Origin: Alphaproteobacteria bacterium
GTDB taxonomy: Bacteria; Pseudomonadota; Alphaproteobacteria; RF32; CAG-239
Direction of reading: 5' to 3'
Length of the DNA stretch: 64,000 bases
Assembly (NCBI GenBank): GCA_044432975.1
Contig: JAWXUC010000001.1
Span: forward strand, 212,604 to 276,603
Part shown: positions 3,850-61,544 of the stretch, piece by piece
Numbering within the stretch: the stretch's first letter is position 1
How the letters are laid out: each line of letters begins with the position of its first letter
The notes under the pieces: model-generated
Told to the model about the DNA's origin: nothing
Database searches by the model: none
What the model saw: the letters and a program-made list of their open reading frames with translations, nothing else
Program-made: the position numbers and the translations under genes

Positions 3850-3861
3850 ACTTTTTTATAA

Positions 3862-5283: not shown

Positions 5284-6704
5284 TTCATATCTCCTTCCAA
5301 ATGAGAGGCTAATTTATATAAAGTTACCTCATCAAAAGACTTACCAATAAGTTGCAAACCAAGTGGCATATTTTTAGAATCAAATCCTGCAGGAACAGAA
5401 ATCGCAGGAATTCCCGCCAAGTTTACAGAAACCGTATAAATATCATTCAACCACATATTAACAGGATTCTCTAACATTGATTTATCACCAATTTTGAACG
5501 CAGAAGTTGGCGCTGTTGGGCATAAAATCGCATCAACATTTTCAAATGCTCTATCAAAATCTTGTTTAATAAGTTGACGTACTTTTTGTGCTTTCAAATA
5601 ATAAGCATCATAAAAACCAGAAGACAAAACATAAGTCCCAATCATAATTCTTCTTTTAACTTCAGCCCCAAAACCACTTGAACGAGAAGCAATATACATA
5701 TCATCTAAATCCTCTGCCTCAACACGCTTACCATAGCGCAAACCATCAAAACGAGCCAAATTAGAAGAAGCTTCAGCAGGCGCTAAAATATAATAAGTCG
5801 CCAACGCATATTTTGTGTGAGGCAAAGAAATTTCTTTAATTTCAGCCCCTCTAGACTTCAAAACATCAATTCCTTTTTCCCAAGCTTTAACAACATCGGC
5901 ATCCATTCCGTCTGCTTTATATTCTTTGGGAATACCGATTCTCAAATCTTTAACATCTTGATTCAAAAACTGTGTAAAATCAGGAACATCTAATTTAATA
6001 GAAGTTGCATCTTTTTTATCATGCCCAGCCATAACATTAAACAAAATAGCATTATCTTCAACTGTCTTTGTCATTGGCCCAGCCTGATCTAAAGATGAAG
6101 CAAACGCCACGATTCCATAACGAGAACATCTACCATAAGTTGGCTTCATTCCCACAATTCCGCAATAAGCAGCTGGCTGACGAATTGACCCACCAGTATC
6201 TGTTCCCAATGCCGCAACACACAAATCTCCACCAACTGCAGCAGCAGACCCACCTGAAGAACCACCAGCAACACAGTCTAAATTATGTGGGTTTTTAACA
6301 GGTCCAAAAATAGATTTTTCATTAGAACCGCCCATAGCAAACTCATCCATATTAAGTTTACCTAAACAAACCCCGCCATTATCCCAAAGTTTTTGAGTAA
6401 TTGTAGATTCATATTGAGGAACAAAGTTTGATAAAATATCAGAACAAACTGTAGTTCTAATGCCTTTGGTGCAAAAAATATCTTTAATACCCAAAGGTAC
6501 ACCTTCTAAAGCTTTTTGTGTTCCATTTGCATAATTATCATCTGCAGTTTTTGCCTGAGCTAAAGCGTGCTCTGGAGTTGTTAAAACATAAGCATTAATA
6601 TCTTTATTATCATCAATTTTTTTAATATATGCTGTTGTTAATTCTGTTGCTGAAACCTCTTTATTTTTAAGAGCTTTCAAAGTTTTTGCAATTGTAAATT
6701 CCAT
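5280..6704 (-). CDS. gatA: Glutamyl-tRNA(Gln) amidotransferase subunit A (amidase family)
   Basis: 474 aa carrying the amidase signature [13 protein letters not shown] and the catalytic S/K-rich core. It overlaps gatB by 4 nt. Confidence 0.95.
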
Positions 6705-41987: not shown

Positions 41988-42032
41988 TAACAACAAAACA
42001 CTATTTCTCAAAAGACAATATATCTCCAGGGC

Positions 42033-42110
42033 TCTCATCGCGTGCTACTTACCAACAAAAAACCCCTGCTTTCAGCAGAGGATTTTTGTTGGTAGGCGCA
42101 CGGGGATTGA
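42033..42110. repeat. Direct repeat copy A of a tRNA-3'-end-like att sequence plus hairpin (78 bp)
   Basis: It shares ~75 of 78 identical nt with 42191-42273. On the minus strand the T-arm of the tRNA-like part is split by a 74-nt GC-rich insert. Confidence 0.6.
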
Positions 42111-42190
42111 CTTCGTCGTCCTTTGTTCATTCGCTTCGCTCACCGCCACACTTCCGTGTGGCTTTCACTGCAGTCTCGAACCCCTTTCTT

Positions 42191-42273
42191 CCGTGGTTCT
42201 CATCGCGTGCTACTTACCAACAAAAAACCTCTGCTTTCAGCAGAGGATTTTTATTGGTAGGCGCACGGGGATT
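42191..42273. repeat. Direct repeat copy B of the tRNA-3'-end-like att sequence
   Basis: See copy A. Here the tRNA-like 3' end is uninterrupted. Confidence 0.6.
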
Positions 42274-42291
42274 CGAACCCCGGACCCACTG
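42255..42291 (-). pseudogene. tRNA 3' fragment (variable loop, T-arm, acceptor 3' strand, CCA) followed by a terminator hairpin; putative attachment-site remnant
   Basis: The minus strand reads AGTGGGTC-CGGGG-TTCGAAT-CCCCG-TGCGCCT-A-CCA. No matching 5' acceptor strand (AGGCGCA), D-arm or anticodon arm was found within 150 nt upstream. The hairpin CCTCTGCTGAAAGCAGAGG plus a T-run follows. Confidence 0.5.
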
Positions 42292-42573
42292 ATTAAGAGT
42301 TATATAGCCTGTAAGAAAATACATAGCAATTTTAGATAGTTAAACCCTCTCAAAAATCCATCCATAAAAATTTTCCGAGTTTTTTCCGAGTTTTTGATAA
42401 AACCCGAACATAAATTATTTTTCAAAAAAATATAGGTGTATTAAAGTGCCTTTGTTAGTATCGGCTAATATTTTGCTGTATTTTGGTGTATTTAGTGGTC
42501 TCTTTTAGTGCTGAAAGTTAAAACGTTCTACTGTACTCTCTTAATTGTATTTAATTGAAATTTGGAGAATATT

Positions 42574-42810
42574 ATGCAAAAAAAATATATTAACACAAAA
42601 GAATTATCCGAGTATTTAGGGCTTGCTGTTTCTACATTAGCAACATTTCGCTCTGACGATAAAGGACCCCCATATAAAAAGATTGGTAGACTTGTCCGCT
42701 ATAATGTAGATGAAGTTGAAACTTGGTTGGAAGAAAATCAACAATATTTACAGAAATCGCTGGACAATCACGACAACATACCTAAGCTGAACATAATAAA
42801 AATCCATTAG
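42574..42810 (+). CDS. AlpA/excisionase-like HTH DNA-binding protein
   Basis: The sequence INTKELSEYLGLAVSTLATFRSDDKGPPYKKIGRLVRYNVDEVETWL fits the AlpA pattern. The ATG at 42574 is preceded by GGAGA; the TTG at 42562 used by the ORF track is less likely. Confidence 0.65.
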   Translation: MQKKYINTKELSEYLGLAVSTLATFRSDDKGPPYKKIGRLVRYNVDEVETWLEENQQYLQKSLDNHDNIPKLNIIKIH

Positions 42811-42832
42811 AAACAATGCGAAAGGATATATT

Positions 42833-44080
42833 ATGACACAGCGAGTAAAGAAAAAAATAACTCCCGAAGTTTTAGATAATTTTCTTAAAGGGCAAGAAGA
42901 CATCAAAGTCAAAGATACAGAAATATCTGGCTTCTATGTTTGGTATTATGCTGTCAGCGGGCGAAAAACATTTTTTATGCGTTATTATGCAAAAGAAGAG
43001 AAAAAAGAAAGAAACATCAAAATCGGCTGTTATCCAGACATTAGATTAAAAGAAGCAAGGGAAATTGCTTATGAATATAAATCAAGCGTTATCCGTGGTG
43101 GCAATCCAGTTGTAGAGATAAAACAACAACAAGAGGACGCTTACCAAGAAAAAGCCAATAATCTAAAAGTTAAAGTTGTTTTGCAAGAGTATTTAACTGA
43201 ATATACTGCTAGATATAACAAACCTCGCACATTAGAAATTCAAAAAGGTATTATAAAACGTTTTATAAACAAAGAAATTGGTAATATTTTTATCAAAGAA
43301 TTAAAACTATTAGATATAAATAAGCTTGTTTCAAAAGTAGGAGCTAAAACTCCTGCTCAAGCCAATCAATGCAAAGCCTTACTTTCTTGTTTTTTAAATT
43401 GGTGCGAAGATTATGGATATAGAGAGCTAAACTCAAATCCCTGCAGAAAAATAAAAAAGTTTAAATTGAAAGTTAGAGATAGAGTTTTATCGTTTGAAGA
43501 ATATGGACGTTTATTTGACGCAATAGAAAAAGGCAAAGAATATGATATATACGCCTCATCTTCCTTTGATATAATTAAATTTTTAGCTATTACAGGCTGT
43601 CGCTTATCAGAAGCCAAAGACTTAAAATGGGTTGAAGTTGATTTTAATAATAGCTTATTAAGATTATTAGATAGCAAAACGGGAGAAAAAGCCGTTCCAA
43701 TAGGCAATGAAGCACTTAATATATTAAAGGAAGCTTATAAGAAAAAGTCCTGTGAATACGTTTTTCCCTCTTCAAAACACGCTGGGCAACCATTCTTTGA
43801 TGTAAGAAGACCATGGTTCTTTATTAGAAAAGAGGCAAAACTAGATGGGCTTAGAATACACGACCTCCGCCATTCATTTGCAACCGCTGGCAGTATGATG
43901 GGCGAGAATATCGCAGTTATAGGAAGTGTTTTAGGGCATAGGCAAATATCAACAACACAAAGATATACCCATATAAATAACATTGCAGGAATAGAAGTTG
44001 CCAATAAGATTTCAAGCAAAATCATACAGATGTCTAAGCAATATTCCGAAGATTGCAATTTATTAGTCGCAAATGCTTAA
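42833..44080 (+). CDS. int: Tyrosine recombinase / phage integrase
   Basis: 415 aa whose C-terminal catalytic domain carries R...HDLRHSFAT...RYTH (catalytic Tyr). It lies adjacent to the tRNA-like att repeats. Confidence 0.9.
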   Translation: MTQRVKKKITPEVLDNFLKGQEDIKVKDTEISGFYVWYYAVSGRKTFFMRYYAKEEKKERNIKIGCYPDIRLKEAREIAYEYKSSVIRGGNPVVEIKQQQEDAYQEKANNLKVKVVLQEYLTEYTARYNKPRTLEIQKGIIKRFINKEIGNIFIKELKLLDINKLVSKVGAKTPAQANQCKALLSCFLNWCEDYGYRELNSNPCRKIKKFKLKVRDRVLSFEEYGRLFDAIEKGKEYDIYASSSFDIIKFLAITGCRLSEAKDLKWVEVDFNNSLLRLLDSKTGEKAVPIGNEALNILKEAYKKKSCEYVFPSSKHAGQPFFDVRRPWFFIRKEAKLDGLRIHDLRHSFATAGSMMGENIAVIGSVLGHRQISTTQRYTHINNIAGIEVANKISSKIIQMSKQYSEDCNLLVANA

Positions 44081-45564: not shown

Positions 45565-47469
45565 GTGTCAATTCTGAATAATCGTTCTAAAACAAAGGAA
45601 TATAAAGTTATGGATATTAAGAAACTAGATGGCAAGAGTTTGGATATTGAAAATGTTGATATAGAAAAGTTAAAAGCTATATTTCCTCAAGTTTTTATGG
45701 AAAATAAGCTTGATATTAGTAAGCTTCTTAATCTTTGTGGTGAATATATTGAGAGAGATGATGAAAAATATAAGTTTGAATGGAAAGGTAAATCTGATTG
45801 TTATAAGGTTGCTGGCAAGCGTTCTACAGGCACTTTGCGTCCTGCACCGCAAGAAAGTATAGATTTTGAAAATACTAATAATCTTTATATTGAGGGAGAT
45901 AATTTAGAAGTATTAAAACTCTTGCAAACTGCGTATTATCGCAAGGTTAAAATGATTTATATTGACCCTCCTTATAATACAGGCCATGATTTTGTTTATG
46001 AAGATGACTTCAAAGACCCAATTGCAAAATATAAAGAAATTACAGAACAAACAACCAAATCAAACGTTGAAACAATGGGTCGTTATCATACCAACTGGCT
46101 TAATATGATGTATCCAAGACTAAGGCTCGCCTCAAACCTTTTGCGTGATGATGGCGTTATTTTTATATCTATTGATGATAACGAAATAACCAACCTCCGC
46201 CGTTTATGCGATGAAGTATTTGGGGAAGAAAATTTTGTTGACTGTTTACATTGGAAGAAGAAAAAACAACCATCTTTCTTGGCTAAGCATACAGCAAAAG
46301 TTATGGAGTATGTTTTAATATACGCAAAAAACTTTAATAGCTTAGAAAAATTATCTATTGAAACTCTTTCTGACGCAACAAAAAAAGTTATTAACATTTC
46401 AAATCAAGAAACAAAAAGACGTTTTAGCAAAGGTGTAAGAGTAAAGATTGGAGATACAGGCGTAATAAAAGCTGGACGATATAAAGTAAAAACAATGGAA
46501 GTTGAATATTTACAAGATATATACTACCAAAATGGATTGACTACAAATGAAGTTGATGTTGTTTCCAAGTTTTCTGTTTCTCAAGATAAAATAGATAATT
46601 TCATTTCTGAAAATTTACTTTTTATCACAGAAAATAAAGGATTAAGAAGAGATGTCTCTGAAGAAGAAAAATTAAAAAGAAAATCTATTACTGATTTGTT
46701 ATTAAGCGAATATGGAGATAGCCAAGAAAGTGATAATGAGCAAAAAGAAATTTTTGGTGAAAGATTATTTGATTATACAAAGCCAACAAAACTAATATAT
46801 AATTTTACTAAATCTCTTTTATGCAATGATAATGATATTATTCTTGACTTTTTCTCGGGAAGTGGAACAACCGCCCACGCTGTTATGCAATTGAATGCTG
46901 ATGATAATATAAATCGTCAATTTATTGTTGCACAAATACCCGAGCAAACAGGACTAGAAGAATATAAAACCATTTGTGAAATAGGCAAAGAGCGTATTCG
47001 CCGTGCTGGGGCTAAGATTAAAGAGCAAAATCCAAATGTTGATACTGGCTTTAAGGTTTTCAAACTAGATACTTCAAATTTGAAAAAATGGGACGACACG
47101 CCTATTCAAGATGATGATGAGGCAACTTTGTTTGAGCGTATGAATGAAATGGAAAAAACATTAAAAACAGATAGAAACGAGCTAGATTTCATCTATGAAG
47201 TTATGTTAAAATTAGGTATTCCATTGACTTATAGCATTTCCATAATGCAAATTGGCACACGCAAAGTTTATTCTATCGGAGATGATAGCTTGATTTTAGT
47301 TTGTATTGATAGCTCTAGCGGTGGTATAACAGCCGAAGACATTACAGCAATGTGCGACATTGCCCCTGCCAAAATAGTCGCAAGCGAAGAAGCCTTTGCC
47401 GATGATGTTGCCCTCTCAAATGCTTATTATATAAGCAAAGATAAAAAAATAGAAATTGAGTTGTTGTAA
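45565..47469 (+). CDS. mod: Type III restriction-modification Mod subunit (N6-adenine DNA methyltransferase)
   Basis: 634 aa. Motif IV reads IYIDPPYNTG in the N-terminal half and the AdoMet motif I (FFSGSGTTAHA) lies in the C-terminal half. A variable target-recognition region lies between them. Confidence 0.85.
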   Translation: MSILNNRSKTKEYKVMDIKKLDGKSLDIENVDIEKLKAIFPQVFMENKLDISKLLNLCGEYIERDDEKYKFEWKGKSDCYKVAGKRSTGTLRPAPQESIDFENTNNLYIEGDNLEVLKLLQTAYYRKVKMIYIDPPYNTGHDFVYEDDFKDPIAKYKEITEQTTKSNVETMGRYHTNWLNMMYPRLRLASNLLRDDGVIFISIDDNEITNLRRLCDEVFGEENFVDCLHWKKKKQPSFLAKHTAKVMEYVLIYAKNFNSLEKLSIETLSDATKKVINISNQETKRRFSKGVRVKIGDTGVIKAGRYKVKTMEVEYLQDIYYQNGLTTNEVDVVSKFSVSQDKIDNFISENLLFITENKGLRRDVSEEEKLKRKSITDLLLSEYGDSQESDNEQKEIFGERLFDYTKPTKLIYNFTKSLLCNDNDIILDFFSGSGTTAHAVMQLNADDNINRQFIVAQIPEQTGLEEYKTICEIGKERIRRAGAKIKEQNPNVDTGFKVFKLDTSNLKKWDDTPIQDDDEATLFERMNEMEKTLKTDRNELDFIYEVMLKLGIPLTYSISIMQIGTRKVYSIGDDSLILVCIDSSSGGITAEDITAMCDIAPAKIVASEEAFADDVALSNAYYISKDKKIEIELL

Positions 47470-47507
47470 AAATTCTAATTACGGCGAATGTGCCATAATT
47501 AAAAATA

Positions 47508-47969
47508 ATGATAAGAAAGGAAAACAAAATGAAAAGAAACTTTGAAACTATGAAAACCATTTTTTCTAATGCTATACTTGCATTAGAAAAAAAAGATAAT
47601 ATACAAATATCCGATATTGTTGACAGTAAAAACAAAGACGAAGTATATAATTTTAATTTAATGATAGAAGATGCGTTCTTTAATACATGGATAGATCCAC
47701 TGGATAAGATTCAATTCATATCAAATCTAACAGGAAAAGGAGAGCGTTTCTTCAATTTAACTAAAAATCAAAATTTATTAGAGGAACTTGATTTAAAATA
47801 TAGTGATTTGTTGAGTGTTCTTTCAACAGAATCTATTCTTGAAAAAGCGGAATGGATTATAAAAAATGACACTCATTTTCATAATATGAATATAATGTAT
47901 AGAGAATCTGGCGAAAAAATATCATATAAAGATTTTTGCAAACAATTTTCTGAAAGTTTATTTAAATAA
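47508..47969 (+). CDS. Hypothetical protein inserted between mod and res
   Basis: 153 aa with no recognisable motif. It is very AT-rich. Confidence 0.4.
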   Translation: MIRKENKMKRNFETMKTIFSNAILALEKKDNIQISDIVDSKNKDEVYNFNLMIEDAFFNTWIDPLDKIQFISNLTGKGERFFNLTKNQNLLEELDLKYSDLLSVLSTESILEKAEWIIKNDTHFHNMNIMYRESGEKISYKDFCKQFSESLFK

Positions 47970-48107
47970 TGAAACTACAATTTACAAAACAAGGCACTCG
48001 TCATCCCGAACTTGTTTCGGGATCTCCAAAAGGTGTAGATGAGATGCTGAAACAAGTTCAGCATGACGAATTATGTGTTCGTGATAATGCTTTGGGGGTG
48101 TTTCAAT
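47969..48107 (+). pseudogene. Duplicated 5' end of res (MKLQFTKQ...) reading into the insertion; probable remnant
   Basis: A 26-nt identity with the true res start (AATGAAACTACAATTTACAAAACAAG) is followed by 38 unrelated codons that include the left inverted repeat. Confidence 0.4.
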
Positions 48108-48621
48108 GAAGCAAGGATATGTTTATATAATGACAAATAAATACAATACTACTTTTTATATTGGGGTAACAAGTAATATTGAGCGTCGTGTATATGAACA
48201 TAAAAATAATTTAGTTAAAGGTTTTACAGAAAAATATAATGCTCATAAATTGGTTTATATCGAGCAATATAACTTAGTAACAGAGGCAATTGCTAGAGAA
48301 AAACAATTAAAAAATTGGCACAGAGATTGGAAAATAAATTTAATTAAAAAACAAAATCCTAACTTTGAGGACTTATATACTCGGAAAATTTCTAATGCAC
48401 AAGAGATTTTAGAGATCCCGAAACAAGTTCGGGATGACGAGAGTGGAGTTCAGGATTACGGATTGGGAATTAGTGATGGCGAGTGCGTTATTTGGGAGAA
48501 CGAGTGTGGAGTTCGGGATGAAAGCTTGGAAATTAAGGGTGATTGTTTAGAGTTGTACGAAAATATCGTACAACTGAAGATTCCAAAAAGTATTAAGCAA
48601 ATTGCAAAGGATAAGAAATGA
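48106..48621 (+). CDS. GIY-YIG nuclease domain protein (YhbQ/COG2827-like) with a C-terminal extension
   Basis: Its N-terminus GYVYIMTNKYNTTFYIGVTSNIERRVYEHKNN carries GIY...YIG with the catalytic R/E residues. The stop overlaps the res ATG (ATGA). Confidence 0.75.
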   Translation: MKQGYVYIMTNKYNTTFYIGVTSNIERRVYEHKNNLVKGFTEKYNAHKLVYIEQYNLVTEAIAREKQLKNWHRDWKINLIKKQNPNFEDLYTRKISNAQEILEIPKQVRDDESGVQDYGLGISDGECVIWENECGVRDESLEIKGDCLELYENIVQLKIPKSIKQIAKDKK

Positions 48622-51600
48622 AACTACAATTTACAAAACAAGAATTTCAAACAAATGCTGTTGAGGCGGTGGCTGGATTGTTTAAGGGGCAAGAAGAAGA
48701 TTCTGCAACTTTTTCGATTGTTGATAATTCGGCTCAAACATCTTTCTTGGCTGGAGGCTTGGGCAATCAAATCTTGATTGATGATAAAACTTTGGCAGAA
48801 AACCTTAACGCTATTCAAAAACATAACTCTTTGCCATTGAGCGATGTTTTGCCCTCACCCGCAGGCAAGCCTGCGACCTCTCCCCAAATGGGAGAGGTGT
48901 TAAAAGGTCTTCCCGTTTCTATTGAAATGGAAACAGGAACAGGAAAGACCTATGTTTATATTAAAACTATTTTAGAGCTTAATAAACGTTATGGATTTTC
49001 AAAGTTTATTATTGTAGTGCCAAGCGTGGCTATTCGTGAGGGTGTGTTGCAATCTTTTAAAGATACCACAGAGCATTTCAAAAAAGAATATCCAAAAGCT
49101 TTATATAACTTTTTTATCTATAATTCTTCTCGCTTGAATGATGTTCGCCATTTTGCCCGTTCGCAAGATATACAAATTATGATTATCAACATTGACGCTT
49201 TCAAAAAGGCAGAAAATGTTATCAACCAAGAGCGTGCAGATGACGGAAATGGTAAAATTATCAAATATCTTCAAGATACTAACCCTGTTGTAATTATTGA
49301 TGAGCCTCAATCTGTTGATAATACCGACAAGGCAAAAGAGGCAATTGCAAGCCTTAATCCACTTTGCGTGCTTAGATATTCGGCGACACATCGTGAAAAG
49401 AATAATCTTGTTTATCGTTTAACCCCTGTTGACGCTTACAAAAAAGGCTTGGTTAAGCAAATATGCGTTATCTCTAATTCTGTAATCAATGACGCTAATA
49501 AACCATATATAGCCTTAAAATCTGTGTCTAATGCCAATGGCTTTACGGCTAAGATTGAGATTGATGTTGAGGGAAAAGACGCAAAAATAACTCGTAAAGC
49601 AATAACCATTAAGCCTGGAACAGACTTATATCTTGAATCTGGCAACCGCTCTTTATATGAGGGATATGCGGTGGCAGGAATAGATTGCACCGCTGGTTTT
49701 GAGGGTGTTGAGTTTGCAAATGGCGAATATGTGGCTCTTGGCAAGGCAATTGGCTCTGTTGATGATAATGTTCTTAAACGTTCGCAAATTTATCATACTA
49801 TTAAAACGCATTTTGATAAAGAGCTTCGCTATTTTGCAAAAGATATAAAGGTTTTATCATTATTTTTTATTGATGAGGTTAAGAAATACCGCACCGAAGA
49901 TGGCGAACAAGGTATTTATGCAAAAATGTTTGAAGAATGTTATAACGAGTTATTAGCAAAACCCAAATATGCCCCATTAAAAGAGCTATTTAATACAGAT
50001 GTTGTAAATGCCCATGATGGCTATTTTTCTCAAGATAAAAAAGGTGCTTACAAAAACACCAAAGGCGATACTCAAGCGGACGATACGACATATAATGTTA
50101 TTATGAAAGATAAGAAAAAGCTGTTGTCTTTTGATTGTCCTTTGCGTTTTATTTTCTCGCACTCTGCCCTAAAAGAGGGTTGGGATAATCCTAACGTATT
50201 CCAAGTTTGCACATTATTAGAACAAAAATCTGTTTTTACTTGTCGTCAAAAGATAGGTCGTGGATTGCGTTTATGTGTTAATCAACAAGGAGAGAGAATA
50301 GAAGATAAAAATATCAATATTCTTCACGTTGTGGCAAATGAAAACTTTGCGGATTTTGCCGATAAACTTCAAAAAGAGATTGAAGCAGAAACAGGTATGA
50401 AGTTTGGCACGCTAGAAATTAGCAATCTTCTTGGGCTAACTTATGAAGAAGAAGTTGAGGTTGAAAAGGAAATCACTCAAGAGCAAGCTCAAATAATTGT
50501 GGAAGTTATAGAGGCAAGCAATAATATTGAAGAGGCAAATATTCCCGAGCCTATCAAAGAACAAGTCAAAGATTTGATTAAAGAAGAAAAGCCAATTTCT
50601 GTGGCAACCCTTGTTAATAAAACTTATACCGAAGTTATTAAAGAAGAAAAAACTGTTGACTATGCCGAGGCAGTAGAAATGCTGGAAGATTTGAAAGAGC
50701 AAAAAATTATTTCAAAAGATGGCAAAATAAAAGATACCATGAAAGAGCAACTAAAAGCAGGAACATTAGATTTAGGCGAGCGTTGGTCTAATGCTAAAAA
50801 AAGAGCCGTTTTACAAGCCGTTCAAAAAGCAGACAACAAGCCTGTAATTAGGGACGCAAGCAAAGAGGTTTCTGTAAAGCTTAAAAAGCAAGCTTTTATT
50901 AGCCCCGAGTTTATGGAGTTATGGAACAAAATCAAACAAAAAACAACATATCGTGTGCAATTTGATTTAGAAGAATTAACAAAAAATGCAATTAAAGACT
51001 TAAAAGCAATGCCCCCAATTGCAACCGCTAAAATTATGACGCAAACTGCAGGGCTTGATGTTGCAAAAGCAGGTATTACTCACGTTGAGCAATCTACAAC
51101 AACAGAAGAGCTAAAACAAAATTATTACTCTTTGCCTGATATTTTGCGTTTAATATCTATCAAAACCTTGCTAAAACGCTCAACTGTTAATAAGATTATT
51201 CAAGATAGTGGCAGAGCAAAAGACTTTTTGAAAAATCCTCAAGAGTTTTATGAAAAAGCCTTGGAGATTATAGAGAAAAATCGCCATGCGTTGGCAATTG
51301 ACGGAATTAAATATATTAAGCTTGCTGGCGAAGAATATTATATGCAAGAGATTTTTGAGAGCCAAGAGCTTATTGCTAACCTAGATAAAAATGCGGTGGC
51401 GGTTAATAATAGCGTTTATGACCATGTTATTTATGATAGTTCAACTGTGGAATTGCCTTTTGCAAAAGCGTTAGATAATGATCCCGAAGTTAAAATGTTT
51501 TTCAAAATCCCAAGCCGATTTAAGATTGAAACCCCAATTGGCACATATAATCCCGACTGGGCGGTTTATTTAGAGAAAAACGGCGAACACAAACTTTATT

Positions 51601-51761
51601 TTGTGCTTGAAACCAAAGGCTCTAGTGATTTTCTTCAATTAAGACCAGAAGAAAAGCTAAAAATTCATTGTGGCGAGCAACACTTCAAAGCTCTTGAAAA
51701 CAATACAGTCTTCCCAAGCAAACCCGTTGTAAACTGGCAAGACTTTAAGAAGAGTATGTAA
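48618..51761 (+). CDS. res: Type III restriction enzyme Res subunit (SF2 helicase plus C-terminal PD-(D/E)xK endonuclease)
   Basis: 1047 aa with Walker A METGTGKTYV, the DEAH-like IIDEPQS, a C-terminal YNPDW...LETKG nuclease motif and long coiled-coil inserts. Confidence 0.85.
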   Translation: MKLQFTKQEFQTNAVEAVAGLFKGQEEDSATFSIVDNSAQTSFLAGGLGNQILIDDKTLAENLNAIQKHNSLPLSDVLPSPAGKPATSPQMGEVLKGLPVSIEMETGTGKTYVYIKTILELNKRYGFSKFIIVVPSVAIREGVLQSFKDTTEHFKKEYPKALYNFFIYNSSRLNDVRHFARSQDIQIMIINIDAFKKAENVINQERADDGNGKIIKYLQDTNPVVIIDEPQSVDNTDKAKEAIASLNPLCVLRYSATHREKNNLVYRLTPVDAYKKGLVKQICVISNSVINDANKPYIALKSVSNANGFTAKIEIDVEGKDAKITRKAITIKPGTDLYLESGNRSLYEGYAVAGIDCTAGFEGVEFANGEYVALGKAIGSVDDNVLKRSQIYHTIKTHFDKELRYFAKDIKVLSLFFIDEVKKYRTEDGEQGIYAKMFEECYNELLAKPKYAPLKELFNTDVVNAHDGYFSQDKKGAYKNTKGDTQADDTTYNVIMKDKKKLLSFDCPLRFIFSHSALKEGWDNPNVFQVCTLLEQKSVFTCRQKIGRGLRLCVNQQGERIEDKNINILHVVANENFADFADKLQKEIEAETGMKFGTLEISNLLGLTYEEEVEVEKEITQEQAQIIVEVIEASNNIEEANIPEPIKEQVKDLIKEEKPISVATLVNKTYTEVIKEEKTVDYAEAVEMLEDLKEQKIISKDGKIKDTMKEQLKAGTLDLGERWSNAKKRAVLQAVQKADNKPVIRDASKEVSVKLKKQAFISPEFMELWNKIKQKTTYRVQFDLEELTKNAIKDLKAMPPIATAKIMTQTAGLDVAKAGITHVEQSTTTEELKQNYYSLPDILRLISIKTLLKRSTVNKIIQDSGRAKDFLKNPQEFYEKALEIIEKNRHALAIDGIKYIKLAGEEYYMQEIFESQELIANLDKNAVAVNNSVYDHVIYDSSTVELPFAKALDNDPEVKMFFKIPSRFKIETPIGTYNPDWAVYLEKNGEHKLYFVLETKGSSDFLQLRPEEKLKIHCGEQHFKALENNTVFPSKPVVNWQDFKKSM

Positions 51762-54397
51762 TGAGCGAAACAAAATCTATATTTCCCAATCCTTATTCTG
51801 CTTTTGTTGAGGCTCGGCGATTGCGTGATTGTTTAGATGATAAAAACCTTGCCCCTATATTTGCCTCAACTAATATTAAAATATTGCCTTATCAGATTGC
51901 AGCAGCTGGCTTTACTTTGCGTTCAAAATACTTAAAAGGCTGTATTTTATGTGATGAGGGTTCGCTTGGTAAAACTTATGAGGCGTTGCTTGTGGTCGCT
52001 CAAAAATGGTATGAGGGCGTAGAAAATATTTTAATTGTATTGCCCGATAATCTTATTAACCAATGGAAAAACAAGCTAGAAAATGAATTTAATCTGCCTT
52101 TTCATTTATGGGAAGATGTTAAAAGCGGAAAATATTTGCAATCTCTTGACGCTATTATTCGCAAAGGCGGTGTTTCGTATTCTTTATTAGAAGAAAACAA
52201 ACGTAAAGATAAAATGGTTGGAATTTGCCTTATATCTTACAAACAAGCAATTCAAAACACAGAGCAGTTACAACAGTTTTCTTGGGATTTAGCTGTTTTT
52301 GATGAGGCAGACTTTTTATTCAAGCCCGAGAATAAGTCTGTTATTAGTTTAAAACAAAGCGTTGGCAATGCTTTTAAGCTTCTTTTAACTCCAACGCCTA
52401 TAACCTCAAGCATTATGGATATATATGGGCTAATTCATTTTATTGATGAAGATGTTTTGCCTGATAGTGATACTTTTTATAAACGCTATTTTAGAAAACC
52501 CGAGAATTATGCTGAATTATCAGAATGGGTTTCAAGGTTTGCTTTTAGAACCTTAAAAAGACAAGCCTCAAATTATGTTAATTTTACAAATCGCTTGCCT
52601 GCGGTTATCAATTATAAACTAACAGATGAAGAAAAAGAACTTTATGTTTTAATTGAAAAATACTTGAAGTTGCCCGTAAAGCAAGCATATCCAAGTATGG
52701 ACATCTATCAATTGACTTTAATGTTTTATCATACAATAGCCTCAAGTCCCAAGGCTTTTGCAAATATGCTTAAAAATCCAATAGAACGAGCAGACGCAGA
52801 AGAAAAAGAATTATTGTTGTCTATGCAAGAAAAAGCAGAAAATATTGCTATTAGTGGCAAAATGCAAGATTTATCACAAGCCTTAAAACAAGTATTCAAG
52901 CACTTAAAAGAAAATAAAGAGCCTCAAAAGGCAATTGTTTTTACCGAAAATAATACAACTCGTGAAGTGCTTTATGATTTATTGTCTAATTATAATATAA
53001 CCTCAAATATTGATGATTTTAGAAATGATAAAAGTATACAAATTTTGATTGCTTCCGATGAGCTGGCAAAAGGTTTAGATATTGAGTTTTGCCCCGTTGT
53101 TGTTAATTATGATTTATTATATAATGCGGTGGAAATGGAACAACGTATTTGCAGGTGCCACCGTCAAGGGCAAGTTTCTGATGTGCTAGTTATCAATATG
53201 CTATCGCCTGATAATTTTTCCGATGTTAGAGTTTTAGAGCTTATCAATAAACGCACTTTACAATTTCAAGGGATATTTGGTATGTCCGATGATATTGTTG
53301 GCAATTTTGATGAAAGCTTAAACGATGTTATTGCCAAACTCCGAGAAAATAAAGCTATACAAGAAGATTTTAGAAATAATTTGAAACAACATAGGCAAGA
53401 TAATGAAGATGTTGTCTTAGAGGCAGAAAACGAGCTTTTTACAACCTTTACAAAAAACATTTCTGATAAAATGACTGTTTCTCCCAAGTATATTGAAGAA
53501 CAAGCAGAAAATATAAATCATAATTTATGGGAACTTGCAAAATTTTATTTTAATCATTATGAGCCTTATTATATTATTGATGATGAGAATAAAACTCTAA
53601 CCTTAAAAGAAAACGAAGAACGCCCACTTTTGTTTTATTATAACAATGGCACGCAAAATATTCGTTATTATGGCAAAAATGCTTATGGAATGGCAAAAGA
53701 TTTTAAGCCTGCCACAGGGCGTATAAGTATTCTTTCAATTCTTGGCGAAAATATTTTATACAATATAAAAGTCGCAACCGCTGGCACAATTAAAAGAACA
53801 ACCTTTGAGCCTTGTGAAATTGCTTTTTATAACATAAGCTTGTATTCGGGGCGTAAATATATCAAAGAATTTGATGTTTTAATTGGTAAAACAAATAATG
53901 GAGAGATTATTCCAAGAAGCAAATGTCTTGAAATCCTTAATAACCCAGATATAGAAATAATTGAAGATGAAACTGCAAAATCTTATACTAAAACACAAAA
54001 AATCCCACAAATATCTGATTTGGAAAACAATCAAGAGTTAAGCTATCTGATAGATGAAATTAAAAATAATTATCAGCAAAAAGAAGTAAGCCGAGATGAC
54101 CTTGATTTAATTAAATTGACAGCGAATCGCAAAAAAGACTTACTAAAAGAAAGCGTTGATAATATAAAAAACAAGATAAAGAAATCAAAAGAAAATGCTA
54201 TTGATGACCGCCTTGAGGCTCTTAAACTGCAAAAACAAATGAGCGTTTTAGAAAAAGAGCTAAAACAAAAAGAAGAAAGTCTTTTCTTTGATCAAATAAA
54301 AATTGATGCCGAAATGGAAGAAAAAATCAATTCTTTTATCGAGCTTGATAAATTAGAGATAAGAGTAGAAACCTTGTTTAAGCTTTCAAGTTTATAA
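51761..54397 (+). CDS. SNF2-family ATPase with a ~380-aa C-terminal domain of unknown function
   Basis: It has motif I CDEGSLGKTYEAL, motif II FDEADFL, the SNF2 motif III LLLTPTPITSSIMDIYGLIHFI and motif VI QRICRCHRQGQ. The start overlaps the res stop (TAATG). Confidence 0.8.
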   Translation: MSETKSIFPNPYSAFVEARRLRDCLDDKNLAPIFASTNIKILPYQIAAAGFTLRSKYLKGCILCDEGSLGKTYEALLVVAQKWYEGVENILIVLPDNLINQWKNKLENEFNLPFHLWEDVKSGKYLQSLDAIIRKGGVSYSLLEENKRKDKMVGICLISYKQAIQNTEQLQQFSWDLAVFDEADFLFKPENKSVISLKQSVGNAFKLLLTPTPITSSIMDIYGLIHFIDEDVLPDSDTFYKRYFRKPENYAELSEWVSRFAFRTLKRQASNYVNFTNRLPAVINYKLTDEEKELYVLIEKYLKLPVKQAYPSMDIYQLTLMFYHTIASSPKAFANMLKNPIERADAEEKELLLSMQEKAENIAISGKMQDLSQALKQVFKHLKENKEPQKAIVFTENNTTREVLYDLLSNYNITSNIDDFRNDKSIQILIASDELAKGLDIEFCPVVVNYDLLYNAVEMEQRICRCHRQGQVSDVLVINMLSPDNFSDVRVLELINKRTLQFQGIFGMSDDIVGNFDESLNDVIAKLRENKAIQEDFRNNLKQHRQDNEDVVLEAENELFTTFTKNISDKMTVSPKYIEEQAENINHNLWELAKFYFNHYEPYYIIDDENKTLTLKENEERPLLFYYNNGTQNIRYYGKNAYGMAKDFKPATGRISILSILGENILYNIKVATAGTIKRTTFEPCEIAFYNISLYSGRKYIKEFDVLIGKTNNGEIIPRSKCLEILNNPDIEIIEDETAKSYTKTQKIPQISDLENNQELSYLIDEIKNNYQQKEVSRDDLDLIKLTANRKKDLLKESVDNIKNKIKKSKENAIDDRLEALKLQKQMSVLEKELKQKEESLFFDQIKIDAEMEEKINSFIELDKLEIRVETLFKLSSL

Positions 54398-57053: not shown

Positions 57054-57617
57054 ATGGCAATCATAAATATTTCATTAGACAAGGGCAATACAGCCCTTTT
57101 TTTTAATTCTACTCAAAGCAATATCAAGTTTGCCGTTGCCAAAAGTCTTACTAACACAGCCCAAGCAATTCAAAAAGATGTGCAAGAGCATATTCACAAT
57201 ACTTTTGTTATCAGAAAAAAAGCTGGAGGCTTTGAGCGTTCTATCAGAATAAAGCCCGCCACAAAACAAGCCTTGCAAGCAGAAGTCTATACGATGGCTG
57301 GCTTTGCCTCATTACAGCAAACAGGTGGTATTAGCAAGCCAAAGAGTGGACGCTTGGCAATCCCTCTTTACAATAACCTAAATGAAGTTAAGACCAAAGC
57401 AAAAGCAAACAAAGATATTAAAAACTCTTTTTTAGTTAAGTTCAAAAGCGGTGGATATGGTTTAGCAACACGCAAAGGAAAAGAAATGAAAATATTATTT
57501 GCATTAAGAAGCCAAGCTTATGTACCAAAGCGTTTGAATATGCTTGAAATCGGCGAGCAAACGGCACACAGGGTATTTGAGCAAATCTTCAATAAAAATA
57601 TCGCAGAAATAATTTAG
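57054..57617 (+). CDS. Hypothetical phage protein
   Basis: 187 aa. A terminator-like hairpin ACGAGG...CCTCGT plus a T-run follows. Confidence 0.4.
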   Translation: MAIINISLDKGNTALFFNSTQSNIKFAVAKSLTNTAQAIQKDVQEHIHNTFVIRKKAGGFERSIRIKPATKQALQAEVYTMAGFASLQQTGGISKPKSGRLAIPLYNNLNEVKTKAKANKDIKNSFLVKFKSGGYGLATRKGKEMKILFALRSQAYVPKRLNMLEIGEQTAHRVFEQIFNKNIAEII

Positions 57618-57686
57618 GTACTTTTGACACTTTTTTTTACGAGGGTAAAGGCGACCCCGCCACCTCGTTACACAGACAATTTTTTT

Positions 57687-57797
57687 TTGGGTTGCCACTT
57701 TGCAATCCTCAACGCCACAGAAACATTGACTTTTTACTGGCAACCCAAAATTTTGGGTTGCCATTTTAACATTTGGGTTGCCACTTTGGGTTGCCAC
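57687..57797. repeat. Iteron cluster: four direct copies and one inverted copy of TGGGTTGCCA
   Basis: Direct copies lie at 57688, 57754, 57774 and 57787. The inverted copy TGGCAACCCA lies at 57738. The cluster is immediately upstream of the ParB-methylase and terminase genes. Confidence 0.6.
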
Positions 57798-57820
57798 CTT
57801 AAAACGAAAGGAAAAACAAT

Positions 57821-59170
57821 ATGGATTTTAACATTATACTTCCCCCTGGAATACCAACATGGAAAATTGAGGATTTAGTCCCTTATGACAACAATCCCCG
57901 CACGCATAGTGAAGAGCAAATAAACCAGCTTGTTGCTAGCATTATTGAGTTTGGTTTTACTAATCCAATCTTGGTTGATAAAGAAAGCCGAGAAATTATC
58001 GCAGGTCATGGACGCTTAACCGCTGGTCGCCGTTTAGGAATGCCAAAAATTCCTGTTGTTGCTTTATCTCATTTAGATGAAACAAAACGCCGAAAACTTG
58101 TGATTGCCGACAATCAACTTGCCTTAAACGCTGGCTGGGATATGGATTTATTAGCCACAGAGCTTTCTGCGTTAAATGAAATGGGCGAAGATTTAGACGT
58201 TTTAGGCTTTGATGACAGTTTTCTTGACGATGTCTTAAAAGCAACTTTGGAGGAAGAAACAGGCGATAATTTAAAAAAAGAGTTTGGTTCTTTAGTAGAG
58301 CGTTTTGGCGTGCCACCATTTAGCATTTTAGAAGTTCGCAAAGGTTATTGGCAAAAAAGAAAAAATGCTTGGAAATCTATTATCGCCGAATACGGAGAAA
58401 GCCGTGAGGGAACTTTATTTTCTCCCGATACTTTTATTGCCGAAATGGGAACAGTTAGCTTGCTTGACCCTGTTTTGTGCGAAGTTTCTTTTAATTGGTT
58501 TGGCTTAGGTGCTGGCACAAAATGTGTTGACCCGTTTTGCGGTGATACAATGTTTGCTCATGTATGCTCGGCAAAAGGTGGAAGCTTTACAGGGATTGAA
58601 ATTCGTCCCGATCAAGTAGAGCTTAATAATCAGAAAAAAGAAGAATACAACCTAAATGCAAATTTTATTTGTGATGACGGAATAAATGTTTTGCAACACG
58701 TTGAAGAAAACAGCCAAGACCTTTTGTTTAGCTGTCCGCCTTATTTTGATTTAGAAGTATATAGCGATTTAGAAAAAGACGCAAGCAACCAAAAGGAATA
58801 TGATGATTTTATCAAAATTATTGATAAAGCCTTTGGGGACGCTATCAAAACCTTAAAAGATAATCGCTTTGCCACAATTGTCGTTAGCAATATCAGAAAC
58901 AAGAAAACAGGCTGTTATCGCAATTTCGTTGATGATGTTATTCGTATATTTCAAAAAAATGGAATGCACTTTTATAATGACATTATTCTAGTTGATTCTT
59001 TGGGTTCTGCCCCAAGAAGAGCTGCACATAATATGAAAAACAGAAAGGTTGTAAAAGTCCACCAAAATGTTTTAATTTTTTATAAAGGCAATCCACAAAA
59101 AATCAAAGAAGAGTTCACATCTGAGGTCTTTGTAGATAATTTTGCTGTGGAGGATAAAAACGAGGAATAG
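57821..59170 (+). CDS. ParB-like nuclease domain / DNA methyltransferase fusion protein
   Basis: The N-terminal ParB/Srx region reads PYDNNPRTHSEEQINQLVASIIEFGFTNPILVD...AGHGRL. The C-terminal amino-methyltransferase region carries LFSCPPYFD (motif IV) and VDPFCGDTMFA (motif I-like). Confidence 0.8.
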   Translation: MDFNIILPPGIPTWKIEDLVPYDNNPRTHSEEQINQLVASIIEFGFTNPILVDKESREIIAGHGRLTAGRRLGMPKIPVVALSHLDETKRRKLVIADNQLALNAGWDMDLLATELSALNEMGEDLDVLGFDDSFLDDVLKATLEEETGDNLKKEFGSLVERFGVPPFSILEVRKGYWQKRKNAWKSIIAEYGESREGTLFSPDTFIAEMGTVSLLDPVLCEVSFNWFGLGAGTKCVDPFCGDTMFAHVCSAKGGSFTGIEIRPDQVELNNQKKEEYNLNANFICDDGINVLQHVEENSQDLLFSCPPYFDLEVYSDLEKDASNQKEYDDFIKIIDKAFGDAIKTLKDNRFATIVVSNIRNKKTGCYRNFVDDVIRIFQKNGMHFYNDIILVDSLGSAPRRAAHNMKNRKVVKVHQNVLIFYKGNPQKIKEEFTSEVFVDNFAVEDKNEE

Positions 59171-59173
59171 AAA

Positions 59174-59689
59174 ATGGCAAAAAAGAAAAAAGGTGTGAGT
59201 ATTCGCTCTTATGCAGAACATAGGGGCGTTTCTCATTCTGCCATTCAAAAAGCCATTGAAACAGGACGCATAAAAACATTATCGGACGGCTCTATTGATA
59301 CAATCCAAGCCGATAAAGATTGGGAGGAAAACACTAATTTTGCAAAATCACGCTCAAGCTTTAAGCCAAATGCTTTTGCGGACGCACAAATATTAAAAAT
59401 GAAAGCTGAGGCAACTCTTGCTCAAATTAAAGTAAAAAAAGAAGTTGGTGCGGTGGTGCCAATAGATGATGTTGTTATTTTCCTGCGTGTTCTAACTTCT
59501 GATTTATCTAGTTATTTTTTGTCGCTGGGGCGTAATATTGCCCCCAAAATGGTTGGCGAAAAGGATATTGGTAAAATTACTCGCACTATTGATGATGAAA
59601 TAAAACACCTTATAAAAGAGTATAAAAATGACATTGAAAACAGATTATCAACGGCAACAGCGAAAATTATGGATAGCGAAGATTATTAA
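59174..59689 (+). CDS. Phage terminase small subunit-like HTH protein
   Basis: Its N-terminus KKGVSIRSYAEHRGVSHSAIQKAIETGRI is HTH-like. It lies immediately upstream of the large terminase. Confidence 0.55.
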   Translation: MAKKKKGVSIRSYAEHRGVSHSAIQKAIETGRIKTLSDGSIDTIQADKDWEENTNFAKSRSSFKPNAFADAQILKMKAEATLAQIKVKKEVGAVVPIDDVVIFLRVLTSDLSSYFLSLGRNIAPKMVGEKDIGKITRTIDDEIKHLIKEYKNDIENRLSTATAKIMDSEDY

Positions 59690-61544
59690 GCAAGGTATTC
59701 TTCCTGCATGGCGTGTTGATTTTAATTTATCGGTTAGCGAATGGGCAGATAAATACAGAGTGCTTTCACGGGCAACTTCGGGAGAACCTGGACGATGGAA
59801 AACAAGCAGAACCCCTTATTTGAAAGAGATTATGGATTGTTTATCTCCCTCGCATAGTGCAAAAAAAGTTGTGTTCTTAAAAGGAGCTCAAATCGGAGGC
59901 ACAGAGGCAGGACTTAATTGGCTTGGCTACATAATCCACTATATGCCCGCACCAACACTTTATGTGAACCCGAATATTGAACTTTCAAAAAGAAACTCAA
60001 AAATGCGTATTGCCCCAATGATTGAGGCGACAAAAGTATTAAGCAAATGTATAACGCCTGTCAAATCAAGAGATAGTGGCAATACAATCTTAATGAAAGA
60101 GTTTAAGGGAGGTGTTTTAATTATGACAGGTGCAAACTCTCCTGCGGGGCTTCGCTCAATGCCTGTTAAATATTTGTTTTTAGATGAAGTTGACGGCTTT
60201 CCCGAAGAGGCAGGAATTGAGGGAGACCCTGTTGATTTGGCAGTTCAAAGAACAGCAACCTTTAATAATAAAAAAATCTTTATGATTTCAACTCCAACCA
60301 TTAAGGGTTCTAGCCGTATTGAACAAGCTTTTTTAGAGGGCGACCAAAGACATTATCATGTGCCTTGCCCAAAGTGTGGACATTATCAAGTATTGCATTG
60401 GAAAAATGTTGTTTTTGATTCAAAAGATTTTAAGGAGGCACATTACAAGTGTGAAAGTTGTGGCGAATTATGGGCAGACTGGCAAAAACAAGAGATTTTG
60501 AAAAAAGGACATTGGATAGCAAAAAAGCCTTTTAACACAGAAGTTGCCTCTTTTCACTTATCTTCTTTGTATAGTCCTCATGGTTGGGCTTCGTGGACAG
60601 ATATTGCAAGAGAGTTCTTAAATGTTAAAGACGACCCAACTAGGTTGCAAGTGTGGACAAATACAAAGTTAGCTGAATCTTGGGAAGATATGGCAGGCGA
60701 AAAAGTTGATCCTTATAACTTAATGAATCGCCGAGAAGAATATGGCAAATTATTGCCTGCTGGCGTTGTTATCATAACTTGTGGCGTTGACGTTCAAGAC
60801 AACCGTTTAGAGCTTGAAATTGTTGGCTGGGGACGTGGAGAAGAAAGCTGGTCTATTGATTATCATATTTTATATGGCGACCCATCTAGTCCCGAATTAT
60901 GGGCAGAACTAGATAAAATCTTATCAAGAAAATATGCTCATTCAAAGGCTGTGCCTGATATACCTATATCGGCAACGTGTATTGATAGCGGTGGACACTA
61001 TACCGATTATGTTATCAATTATTGCTATGCAAGACGACAACATGGTATTTGGGCAATAAAAGGACAAGGTGGAAATGGCAAACCAATATGGCCTGCGTCT
61101 GCCTCAAAGAGCTTTAATACAAGAAAGCCCGTTTATATGGTGGGTGTTAATGACGCAAAAGAAACGCTTATGCGAAGACTTCATATTGAAAAAATCGGCG
61201 TTGGTTATTGGCACTTTCCTAAAGACAGGGAACTTGAATGGTTTGAACAATTAACAAATGAAGTTGTAAGAAAGAAATTTTCAAAAGGTCGTTTAATAAG
61301 AGAATGGCAACCCCGCAAAGAGGGTGTAAGAACGGAGGCGTTGGACTGTCGTGTTTATGCTTATGCGGGTTTGCGTGGTTTAATTAGAAATTACCGATTG
61401 AATATTGAGAATGGGGCAGACAGGCTAGAAAACACAAATTTTAAGGAAAACGTAAACAAAAAGGTTTCAGAGCCAGATACTGCCCCGCCTGTCAATGATA
61501 CGCCTATCAAAACAAGAAAAATTAGAAGTAAAGGAATTTTATAA
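59628..61544 (+). CDS. Phage terminase large subunit, GpA family
   Basis: It has the Walker A-like LKGAQIGGTEAG, the Walker B LFLDEVDGF, the GpA zinc finger CPKCGHYQ...CESCG and a C-terminal nuclease region. Confidence 0.85.
   Translation: MTLKTDYQRQQRKLWIAKIIKQGILPAWRVDFNLSVSEWADKYRVLSRATSGEPGRWKTSRTPYLKEIMDCLSPSHSAKKVVFLKGAQIGGTEAGLNWLGYIIHYMPAPTLYVNPNIELSKRNSKMRIAPMIEATKVLSKCITPVKSRDSGNTILMKEFKGGVLIMTGANSPAGLRSMPVKYLFLDEVDGFPEEAGIEGDPVDLAVQRTATFNNKKIFMISTPTIKGSSRIEQAFLEGDQRHYHVPCPKCGHYQVLHWKNVVFDSKDFKEAHYKCESCGELWADWQKQEILKKGHWIAKKPFNTEVASFHLSSLYSPHGWASWTDIAREFLNVKDDPTRLQVWTNTKLAESWEDMAGEKVDPYNLMNRREEYGKLLPAGVVIITCGVDVQDNRLELEIVGWGRGEESWSIDYHILYGDPSSPELWAELDKILSRKYAHSKAVPDIPISATCIDSGGHYTDYVINYCYARRQHGIWAIKGQGGNGKPIWPASASKSFNTRKPVYMVGVNDAKETLMRRLHIEKIGVGYWHFPKDRELEWFEQLTNEVVRKKFSKGRLIREWQPRKEGVRTEALDCRVYAYAGLRGLIRNYRLNIENGADRLENTNFKENVNKKVSEPDTAPPVNDTPIKTRKIRSKGIL

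Follow-up and report, generated by a model that had tools for sequence, protein, structure and literature searches.

Lambda-like cos sites consist of three elements in the order cosQ-cosN-cosB, and the complex form of cosB contains three R sequences bound by the small terminase, TerS (PMC4669245). These follow the order R3-I1-R2-R1, where R2 alone is inverted and R3 and R2 are separated by an IHF site, and the packaging specificities of lambda and phage 21 are set by the TerS recognition helix together with R-site bases (PMC4669245). The DNA-binding domain of the lambda small terminase, gpNu1, is reported to belong to the winged helix-turn-helix (winged-HTH) class (PMC4669245). Among cultured phages, a tblastn search of a phage collection with the TerS of the locus studied here retrieved the RcC phages of Rhodobacter capsulatus (RcDormio, RcKemmy and RcBaka), whose genome ends are defined and carry 11-nt 5′ overhangs, as determined from sequencing reads (PMC8601537). 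Here we analyse a 64-kb stretch of alphaproteobacterial DNA, hereafter the window, in which five TGGGTTGCCA repeats very probably form the cosB, that is, the predicted TerS docking sites (R sites), of a lambda-type cosQ-cosN-cosB in an integrated temperate phage.

The window carries a prophage. Small regulatory genes and a block of Type III restriction-modification and SNF2 genes lie after its integrase gene, and that block forms a defence-like stretch in the prophage early region (45565-54397). The sign of the GC skew flips at ~42000-44000, near the host/prophage junction, along with a switch in gene orientation. The repeats occupy an intergenic region of 203 bp, flanked by a gene for a DUF6441/neck-like protein on one side and by the ParB-methyltransferase gene and terS on the other. 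The genes referred to below are as follows:

42833-44080, integrase gene
45565-47469, Type III methyltransferase
48106-48621, GIY-YIG protein
48618-51761, Type III restriction enzyme, C-terminal endonuclease domain
51761-54397, DrmD-like SNF2 helicase
57054-57617, 187-aa gene preceding the repeat-bearing intergenic region
57821-59170, plus strand, ParB_N plus N6/N4 DNA methyltransferase gene (Pfam, PHROG), the first gene past the predicted cos
59174-59689, plus strand, terS, small terminase (phrog_57), proposed reader of the repeats
59628-61544, plus strand, terL, lambda gpA-type large terminase, proposed cosN nickase

The large terminase, TerL, matches the Pfam families GpA_ATPase (PF05876, 3.6e-90) and GpA_nuclease (PF20454, 3.7e-89), and terL is followed by a gpW-like gene (phrog_118) and then by a lambda-family portal gene (PF05136, 6.9e-99). 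The ParB-methyltransferase joins a ParB_N domain at residues 15-98 to a methyltransferase domain (Pfam, NCBIfam). A TerS identical to that of the window is on record in an uncultured alphaproteobacterial MAG.

The first-pass annotation had described a GC-rich 10-bp motif present five times, four times direct and once inverted, within 110 bp and directly 5′ of the ParB-methyltransferase gene. This description is borne out: five exact copies of TGGGTTGCCA in that arrangement span 109 bp (57688-57796), the last ends 24 nt before the ATG, and the GC content is 60% for the motif and 30-39% for the window. The same annotation had placed the cluster two genes upstream of terS, which needs correction, because the ParB-methyltransferase gene is followed by terS and the cluster therefore lies one gene upstream of it. 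The repeats and the spacer between the first two are arranged as follows:

57688-57697, plus strand, Ra (R3-like), TGGGTTGCCA, starting 34 bp past the cosN core
57698-57737, no strand, 40-bp spacer between Ra and Rb, in the position of the lambda I1/IHF site
57738-57747, minus strand, Rb (R2-like), inverted copy, left arm of the palindrome at 57738-57763
57754-57763, plus strand, Rc (R1-like), direct copy
57774-57783, plus strand, Rd, additional direct copy
57787-57796, plus strand, Re, additional direct copy, 13 bp past Rd

Outside the cluster, no exact copy of TGGGTTGCCA exists on either strand of the whole 64-kb window. When one mismatch is allowed, the window holds 17 matches where 2.4 are expected, a number reached by none of 100 shuffles of the window. 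The 12 one-mismatch matches outside the cluster are scattered over both strands in host and phage genes, and are explained by a general excess of TTGCCA/TGGCAA in the genome. This hexamer occurs 113 times in the window and is the most frequent of 180 permutations (mean 17). The true repeat unit is longer than the 10-bp motif, ~15-17 nt, and reads TTTGGGTTGCCA(C/T)TT. Rb and Rc together form a perfect 26-bp palindrome, TGGCAACCCAAAATTTTGGGTTGCCA (57738-57763); a palindrome like it is seen in the related locus L109 and is absent from the other relatives. The 13-bp spacing of Rd and Re is also the spacing of the repeats in RcDormio. The best match to the IHF consensus in the Ra-Rb spacer is 6/9, which 1806 of 2000 shuffles equal, and the spacers of some relatives reach 8-9/9 (in L029, 3 of 2000 shuffles are as good). 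The repeat/cos region has no match in Rfam, RNA folding of 57610-57700 shows nothing unusual (z = -1.05), and a promoter and terminator scan of the region gave nothing convincing.

To compare the locus with its relatives, we assembled loci by several routes. A TerL-based scan of genome contigs yielded 80 loci, mostly from uncultured low-GC Alphaproteobacteria such as Enterousia, and the relatives keep the gene order 187-aa gene, intergenic region, ParB(-methyltransferase), terS, terL, gpW and portal. A search of viral contigs with TerS alone returned no relatives; closer TerS relatives came from a protein search, and more lineages from a viral-contig scan with a TerS alignment. Exact TGGGTTGCCA is absent from the TerL-related genome loci save for a single copy in L076, so the intergenic regions were read by synteny. 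Two copies of TGGGTTGCCA occur in 25 viral-contig loci, nearly all of them high-GC. De novo clustering on the best 8-mer often chose other clusters (GGTGTGAC in L129, ACTTCCCG in L133), so that a search anchored on cosQ was needed, together with manual checks. The GGTGTGAC iterons of L129 (1092-1200; three direct and three inverted copies) are separate, lie ~1.4 kb upstream of cos and may be an origin or operator.

Directly upstream of the repeats, these comparisons revealed a cosQ/cosN-like element that the first-pass annotation had not flagged and that is kept in at least 13 related prophages. In the window it comprises:

57616-57622, plus strand, cosQ-like heptamer AGGTACT (lambda GGGTCCT), 28-30 nt before the predicted left end
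57639-57668, plus strand, cosN-like nicking region ACGAGGGTAAAGGCGACCCCGCCACCTCGT, with the conserved core GGGTAAAGGCGAC at 57643-57655
57664-57688, plus strand, conserved post-cosN segment CTCGTTACACAGAC (family consensus TCGCTAGACAC), with a T-run into Ra

Set side by side, the intergenic regions share AGGTWCT, ~20 nt and then CGAGGGTAAMGGCGAC, directly after which come repeats that are specific to each locus. The succession AGGTWCT, ~20 nt, GGGTAAMGGCGAC is present at the syntenic site in L026-L032, L036 and L044 and in variant form in L033/34/39/42, and the core GGGTAA[AC]GGCGA is exact, in syntenic position, in nine loci. The pattern GGTNCTNT-N(22-32)-GGCGA[CG] has a single match in the window and a syntenic-site match in 13 loci; stray matches numbered two in the ~1.9 Mb searched, both strands counted.

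The same element aligns with lambda cos. A first alignment of 12 sequences (the set of 11 relatives plus the joined ends of lambda from NC_001416) puts lambda cosQ, GGGTCCT, on AGGTACT and the GGCGAC of the lambda cohesive end on the GGCGAC of the family. GGT.CT.T, GGCGA and part of the downstream TTCGCTA are invariant in all 12; GGCGA matches bases 5-9 of the lambda cohesive end, and the post-cosN columns T60, T64 and A65 are invariant with the lambda TTCGCTA included. GGT.CT is kept in all relatives, in RcDormio, in the Acidithiobacillus phage AcaML1 and in lambda, and the post-cosN segment recurs in RcDormio, AcaML1 and L163. A second alignment combined the joined ends of RcDormio with the window, L109, L110, L026, AcaML1, L163 and lambda. 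Here base 1 of RcDormio falls on window position 57644 and base 1 of lambda on 57646, which would place the predicted cohesive-end segment at ~57644-57657 (GGTAAAGGCGACCC).

Relative to this element the layout of the repeats is conserved, while their sequence is not. Absence of the repeats from related prophages, which the first-pass annotation had named as speaking against iterons, is not what is seen: the motif is unchanged at the same position in L109, and each relative carries a variant of its own at this place, among them GGTTGCCA, GGTAGCCA, GGTTACCA, GTCGCCA, GGTACGCA, GGTTCGCA, GTCCGCA and GGTGCGCA. L109, whose TerS is 72% identical (helix SHTAVQKAI), has four copies of TGGGTTGCCA in the same place and layout; L110 (helix SHPAVIKAI) has three of GGGGTTACCA; and L108, L026, L027 and L112-114 (helix xHGAVQKAI) have G(G/A)GTAGCCA. 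Despite the differing motif, the first repeat starts 34-37 bp past the cosN core in all loci, and despite spacer divergence, the first direct and the inverted copy are 44-48 bp apart, start to start, in most of them. The window and its relatives thus share one layout: a direct copy, 44-48 bp, an inverted copy, and then one or more direct copies.

Several relatives show local peculiarities around the module. The insert that follows cosB in L029 and L030 has replaced the last direct R copy and contains CAAATTG-type repeats with a period of ~23 bp (L029 3720-3800; L030 3710-3790). In L042, the cosQ-like element is closely preceded by a tRNA-like fragment at 3860-3960 with the T-arm-like sequence GGTTCGAATC (minus strand), an arrangement that hints at prophage truncation or at an attachment site beside cos. 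Several close relatives have a small AdoMet_dc-like gene (PF02675) between the ParB-methyltransferase gene and terS, and the window has none:

L109, 2530-2856, AdoMet_dc-like gene
L112, 4176-4508, AdoMet_dc-like gene
L113, 4175-4501, AdoMet_dc-like gene
L114, 4175-4501, AdoMet_dc-like gene

The RcC phages tie the repeats to a physical genome end. RcC phage records begin with GGGGGCGGAAG; that of RcDormio opens with GGGGGCGGAAGCGCG..CTAGCGTGACACG and continues into a T-run, past which three copies of TTTGGGTTTCCACTT lie at 42-82, next to the virion left end. Gene 1 of RcDormio is ParB-like (164-811) and is followed by terS, terL, gpW-like and portal genes, and its right end carries AGGTTCTTCCGG (AGGTTCT) 28 nt before the terminus. 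The ends of RcKemmy and RcBaka are as in RcDormio. In RcDormio, then, the repeats adjoin a sequenced virion end, and the record ends fall exactly at the site homologous to that in the window. We found no description of the RcC repeats as cosB in PMC8601537.

TerS of the window has a candidate domain for reading the repeats. In its AF2 model (mean pLDDT 71.6; 82-85 across residues 10-50), residues 8-54 form a strand-helix-helix-wing-helix unit followed by long helices; the N-terminal winged HTH thus spans ~8-54, and its recognition helix is SHSAIQKAIE (~20-29). A Foldseek search matched Xis of the mycobacteriophage Pukovnik (probability 0.97, rmsd 1.9 Å, 46 columns), as well as MerR-family regulators, excisionases and some packaging proteins, all of these being local matches with E-values >0.1. 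The modelled fold is consistent with a winged-HTH DNA-binding domain. BLASTP detected no significant similarity between TerS and lambda gpNu1 (E = 0.35), and a PDB profile search with TerS gave only weak matches, to E2 peripheral-subunit-binding domains.

Across the relatives, and in independent lineages among them, the residues at positions 21/22/25 (window TerS numbering), which lie in the modelled recognition helix, vary together with the repeat motif:

H-S/T-Q with GGTTGCC: window, L109, L145, L127/129
H-E-R with GGTTGCC: L130 group, L143, L162
H-T-R/G/A with GGTTTCC: L139, L140, L163, L184, L201, RcC phages, AcaML1
H-G-Q with GGTAGCC: L026, L108, L027, L112-114
H-P-I with GGTTACC: L110
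H-R-Q with GTCGCC: L044/L126
E-G-R with GGTACGC: L028/L128, L158 group, L178, L204
D-K-R with GTCCGC: L036
E-S-R and one E-A-R with GGTGCGC: L033, L039
another E-A-R with GGTTCGC: L031
Q-P-N with GGTTATA: L117

A glycine at residue 22 pairs with A at motif position 4, in H/Q and E/R backgrounds alike, and arginine or lysine at residue 22 pairs with C, again in both backgrounds. All repeat copies of one locus change together. L109 and L110, whose motifs differ, have TerS proteins that are 85% identical in the C-terminal part and 67% identical over the N-terminal 55 aa. A one-residue code pairing Q25 with G was considered and is contradicted by SHEAVRKAI loci bearing GGTTGCC; the correspondence is instead one at the level of the helix (21/22/25). 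Because there is no one-residue code and E-A-R is ambiguous, we treat the match between helix and motif as a correlation. Whole-protein covariation was also tried as a means of discriminating TerS from the ParB-domain protein and failed, as the two phylogenies are largely congruent: both proteins follow the same phylogeny, so whole-protein identities cannot separate them. The same motif and the same TerS helix recur together in lineages whose ParB proteins are only ~50% identical.

This last observation bears on a different reader of the repeats. The first-pass annotation had entertained a parS-like or operator site, and for parS-like loading of the downstream ParB-domain methyltransferase, or for its autoregulation, the cluster is well placed, ending 24 nt before the start codon; in most relatives, RcDormio included, the next gene past the repeats also encodes a ParB-domain protein, and with the phylogenies congruent the motif may covary with ParB as well. 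ParB-domain genes are near-universal in the module of cos, TerS and gpA-type TerL, standing before or after terS and sometimes two in tandem; they are usually fused to a methyltransferase, and as a rule such a gene would be packaged first. However, the fixed offset of the repeats is to cosN and not to the ParB gene. Where that gene is displaced, by 0.6-1.5 kb, the repeats remain by cosN and none precede the ParB gene: in L029 and L030 the repeats run into a 1.4-kb insertion, and nothing but a terminator-like hairpin and an RBS stands ahead of ParB; in L033, L034 and L039 another gene follows them, and ParB is 1.4 kb off; in L117 three small ORFs intervene. The repeats are directly followed by terS in AcaML1 and in the viral contigs L130/131/133, L143, L162 and L201; L201 has no ParB gene within 5 kb though the repeats are present, and wherever the others have ParB-domain genes these come after terS, as in three of them:

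L143, 2072-3932, ParB-domain genes after terS
L162, 2338-4168, ParB-domain genes after terS
L124 (AcaML1), 4319-6240, ParB-domain genes after terS

In the window protein, moreover, ParB_N (15-98) is the only ParB domain detected; no HTH was found in residues 91-240, nor any ParA partner gene. Given this, and the recurrence of motif and TerS helix across divergent ParB proteins, a parS or operator function is highly improbable, and the ParB-methyltransferase is an unlikely reader of the repeats. It might still act at the site in a second capacity, the repeats serving two proteins: the ParB-domain protein would be recruited at cosB via TerS or the repeats and would modify DNA during cutting or packaging, or aid cos cleavage. 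HNH proteins assist cos cleavage by HK97-type terminases. An extra role for the repeats is conceivable because there are five copies, as against three in lambda, and because a ParB-domain gene is a near-constant neighbour; we regard it as unlikely.

Readings that invoke transcription or replication fare no better. The repeats are intergenic and head a co-oriented gene block, each contains TTGCCA, which resembles a -35 hexamer, and one promoter-like match lies at 57791-57820, so that the binding of an activator or repressor at a late promoter driving the packaging operon might be considered. That match, however, scores 9/12, with a -10 element that shares bases with the RBS and stops at the ATG, and shuffled sequence yields no fewer promoters. 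The GGTACGCA and GTCCGCA of relatives occupy the same positions relative to cosN and are not -35-like, no regulator gene covaries with the motif, and in RcDormio the repeats abut the physical end of the genome; a promoter function is about as improbable as a parS. Origins typically have short direct and inverted repeats clustered in AT-rich intergenic DNA, and a methyltransferase gene is adjacent; the first-pass annotation had listed a methylation-regulated switch among its candidate roles. Yet the neighbouring genes form a packaging module and include no initiator, and the separate iteron cluster of L129 is different and lies elsewhere. The region 57600-57830 contains no GANTC or GATC, though the enzyme may target other sites, and the methyltransferase part changes type among relatives while the architecture stays constant. 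Replication-origin iterons or a methylation-controlled switch are the least credible of the readings considered.

The remaining proposal of the first-pass annotation, a pac or cos recognition site for the small terminase, survives in its cos half. The fixed offset from cosN, the R3/R2/R1 pattern, the virion end of RcDormio and the covariation with the TerS helix all point to cos, and with a gpA-family TerL, and cohesive ends that are defined in relatives, the site is cos rather than pac. For the lambda-type cos site, TerS binding, nick positions, overhang length and any bending factor are inferences. By analogy with lambda, TerS dimers would bind Ra (plus strand) and Rb (minus strand) across the ~40-bp spacer, and Rc-Re in addition. 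Bound TerS would anchor the gpA-type TerL on the cosN-like core, whose end is 34 bp upstream of the first repeat, and TerL would introduce staggered nicks into this core at ~57644-57657. Packaging would then run rightward, with the ParB-methyltransferase gene entering first, and the cosQ-like AGGTACT at 57616 would serve termination at the next cos.

The assignment locates cos, and thereby the virion genome ends and the packaging direction, in an uncharacterised prophage group. This group, with relatives among phage WO-like and Rhodobacter phages, occurs commonly in gut and host-associated Alphaproteobacteria of low GC content. The comparative set provides at least 10 specificity pairs of TerS helix and R site on a conserved cosQ/cosN scaffold, and the occurrence of identical helices with identical motifs in divergent backgrounds offers material for the evolution of packaging specificity. 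Such pairs could help to predict cross-packaging among prophages, satellites and gene-transfer elements.

Compared with known systems, the locus departs from the complex cosB of lambda, 21 and Monarch in having five copies rather than three, with Rb and Rc forming a perfect palindrome, and in a spacer whose best IHF match is no better than chance. In lambda, Nu1 directly follows cosB, whereas a 1.35-kb ParB-methyltransferase gene separates cosB from terS in the window; the cosN core is GGGTAAAGGCGAC in the window and GGGCGGCGACCT in lambda; no sequence similarity to gpNu1 is detectable in the window TerS, and the host of the prophage is a low-GC uncultured alphaproteobacterium. In N15, the simple cosB (a single R3 plus the accessory rR2) also has a TerS site at the R3 position by a lambda-like cosN, as is predicted for the window, but there one site is critical and a second lies inside the terS gene, whereas the site in the window is complex, with several copies in the style of lambda. 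The RcC phages differ from the window in having three copies, all direct, and no clear inverted one, a ParB protein without a methyltransferase, three reverse-strand genes between ParB and terS, and genomes of 64% GC. They share with it a TerS N-terminus that is ~50% identical (helix SHTAVGKAI versus SHSAIQKAI in the window), a near-identical repeat (TTTGGGTTTCCACTT versus TTTGGGTTGCCACTT), the same offset of the repeats from the genome end and T-run, a ParB-like first gene and the order terS-terL-gpW-portal. With the complex cosB phages, the locus shares a gpA-type TerL, a gpW-like protein and a lambda-family portal, and repeats that begin a few turns past cosN, of which the first is followed by a ~40-bp spacer and the middle one is inverted. 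Its cosQ-like heptamer and cosN-like core align with those of lambda at about equal spacing, and, as between lambda and 21, the R-site sequence varies among relatives together with the TerS recognition helix (PMC4669245). The repeats are best regarded as a cosB-type element of a familiar kind in an unstudied phage group, and not as a new kind of system.
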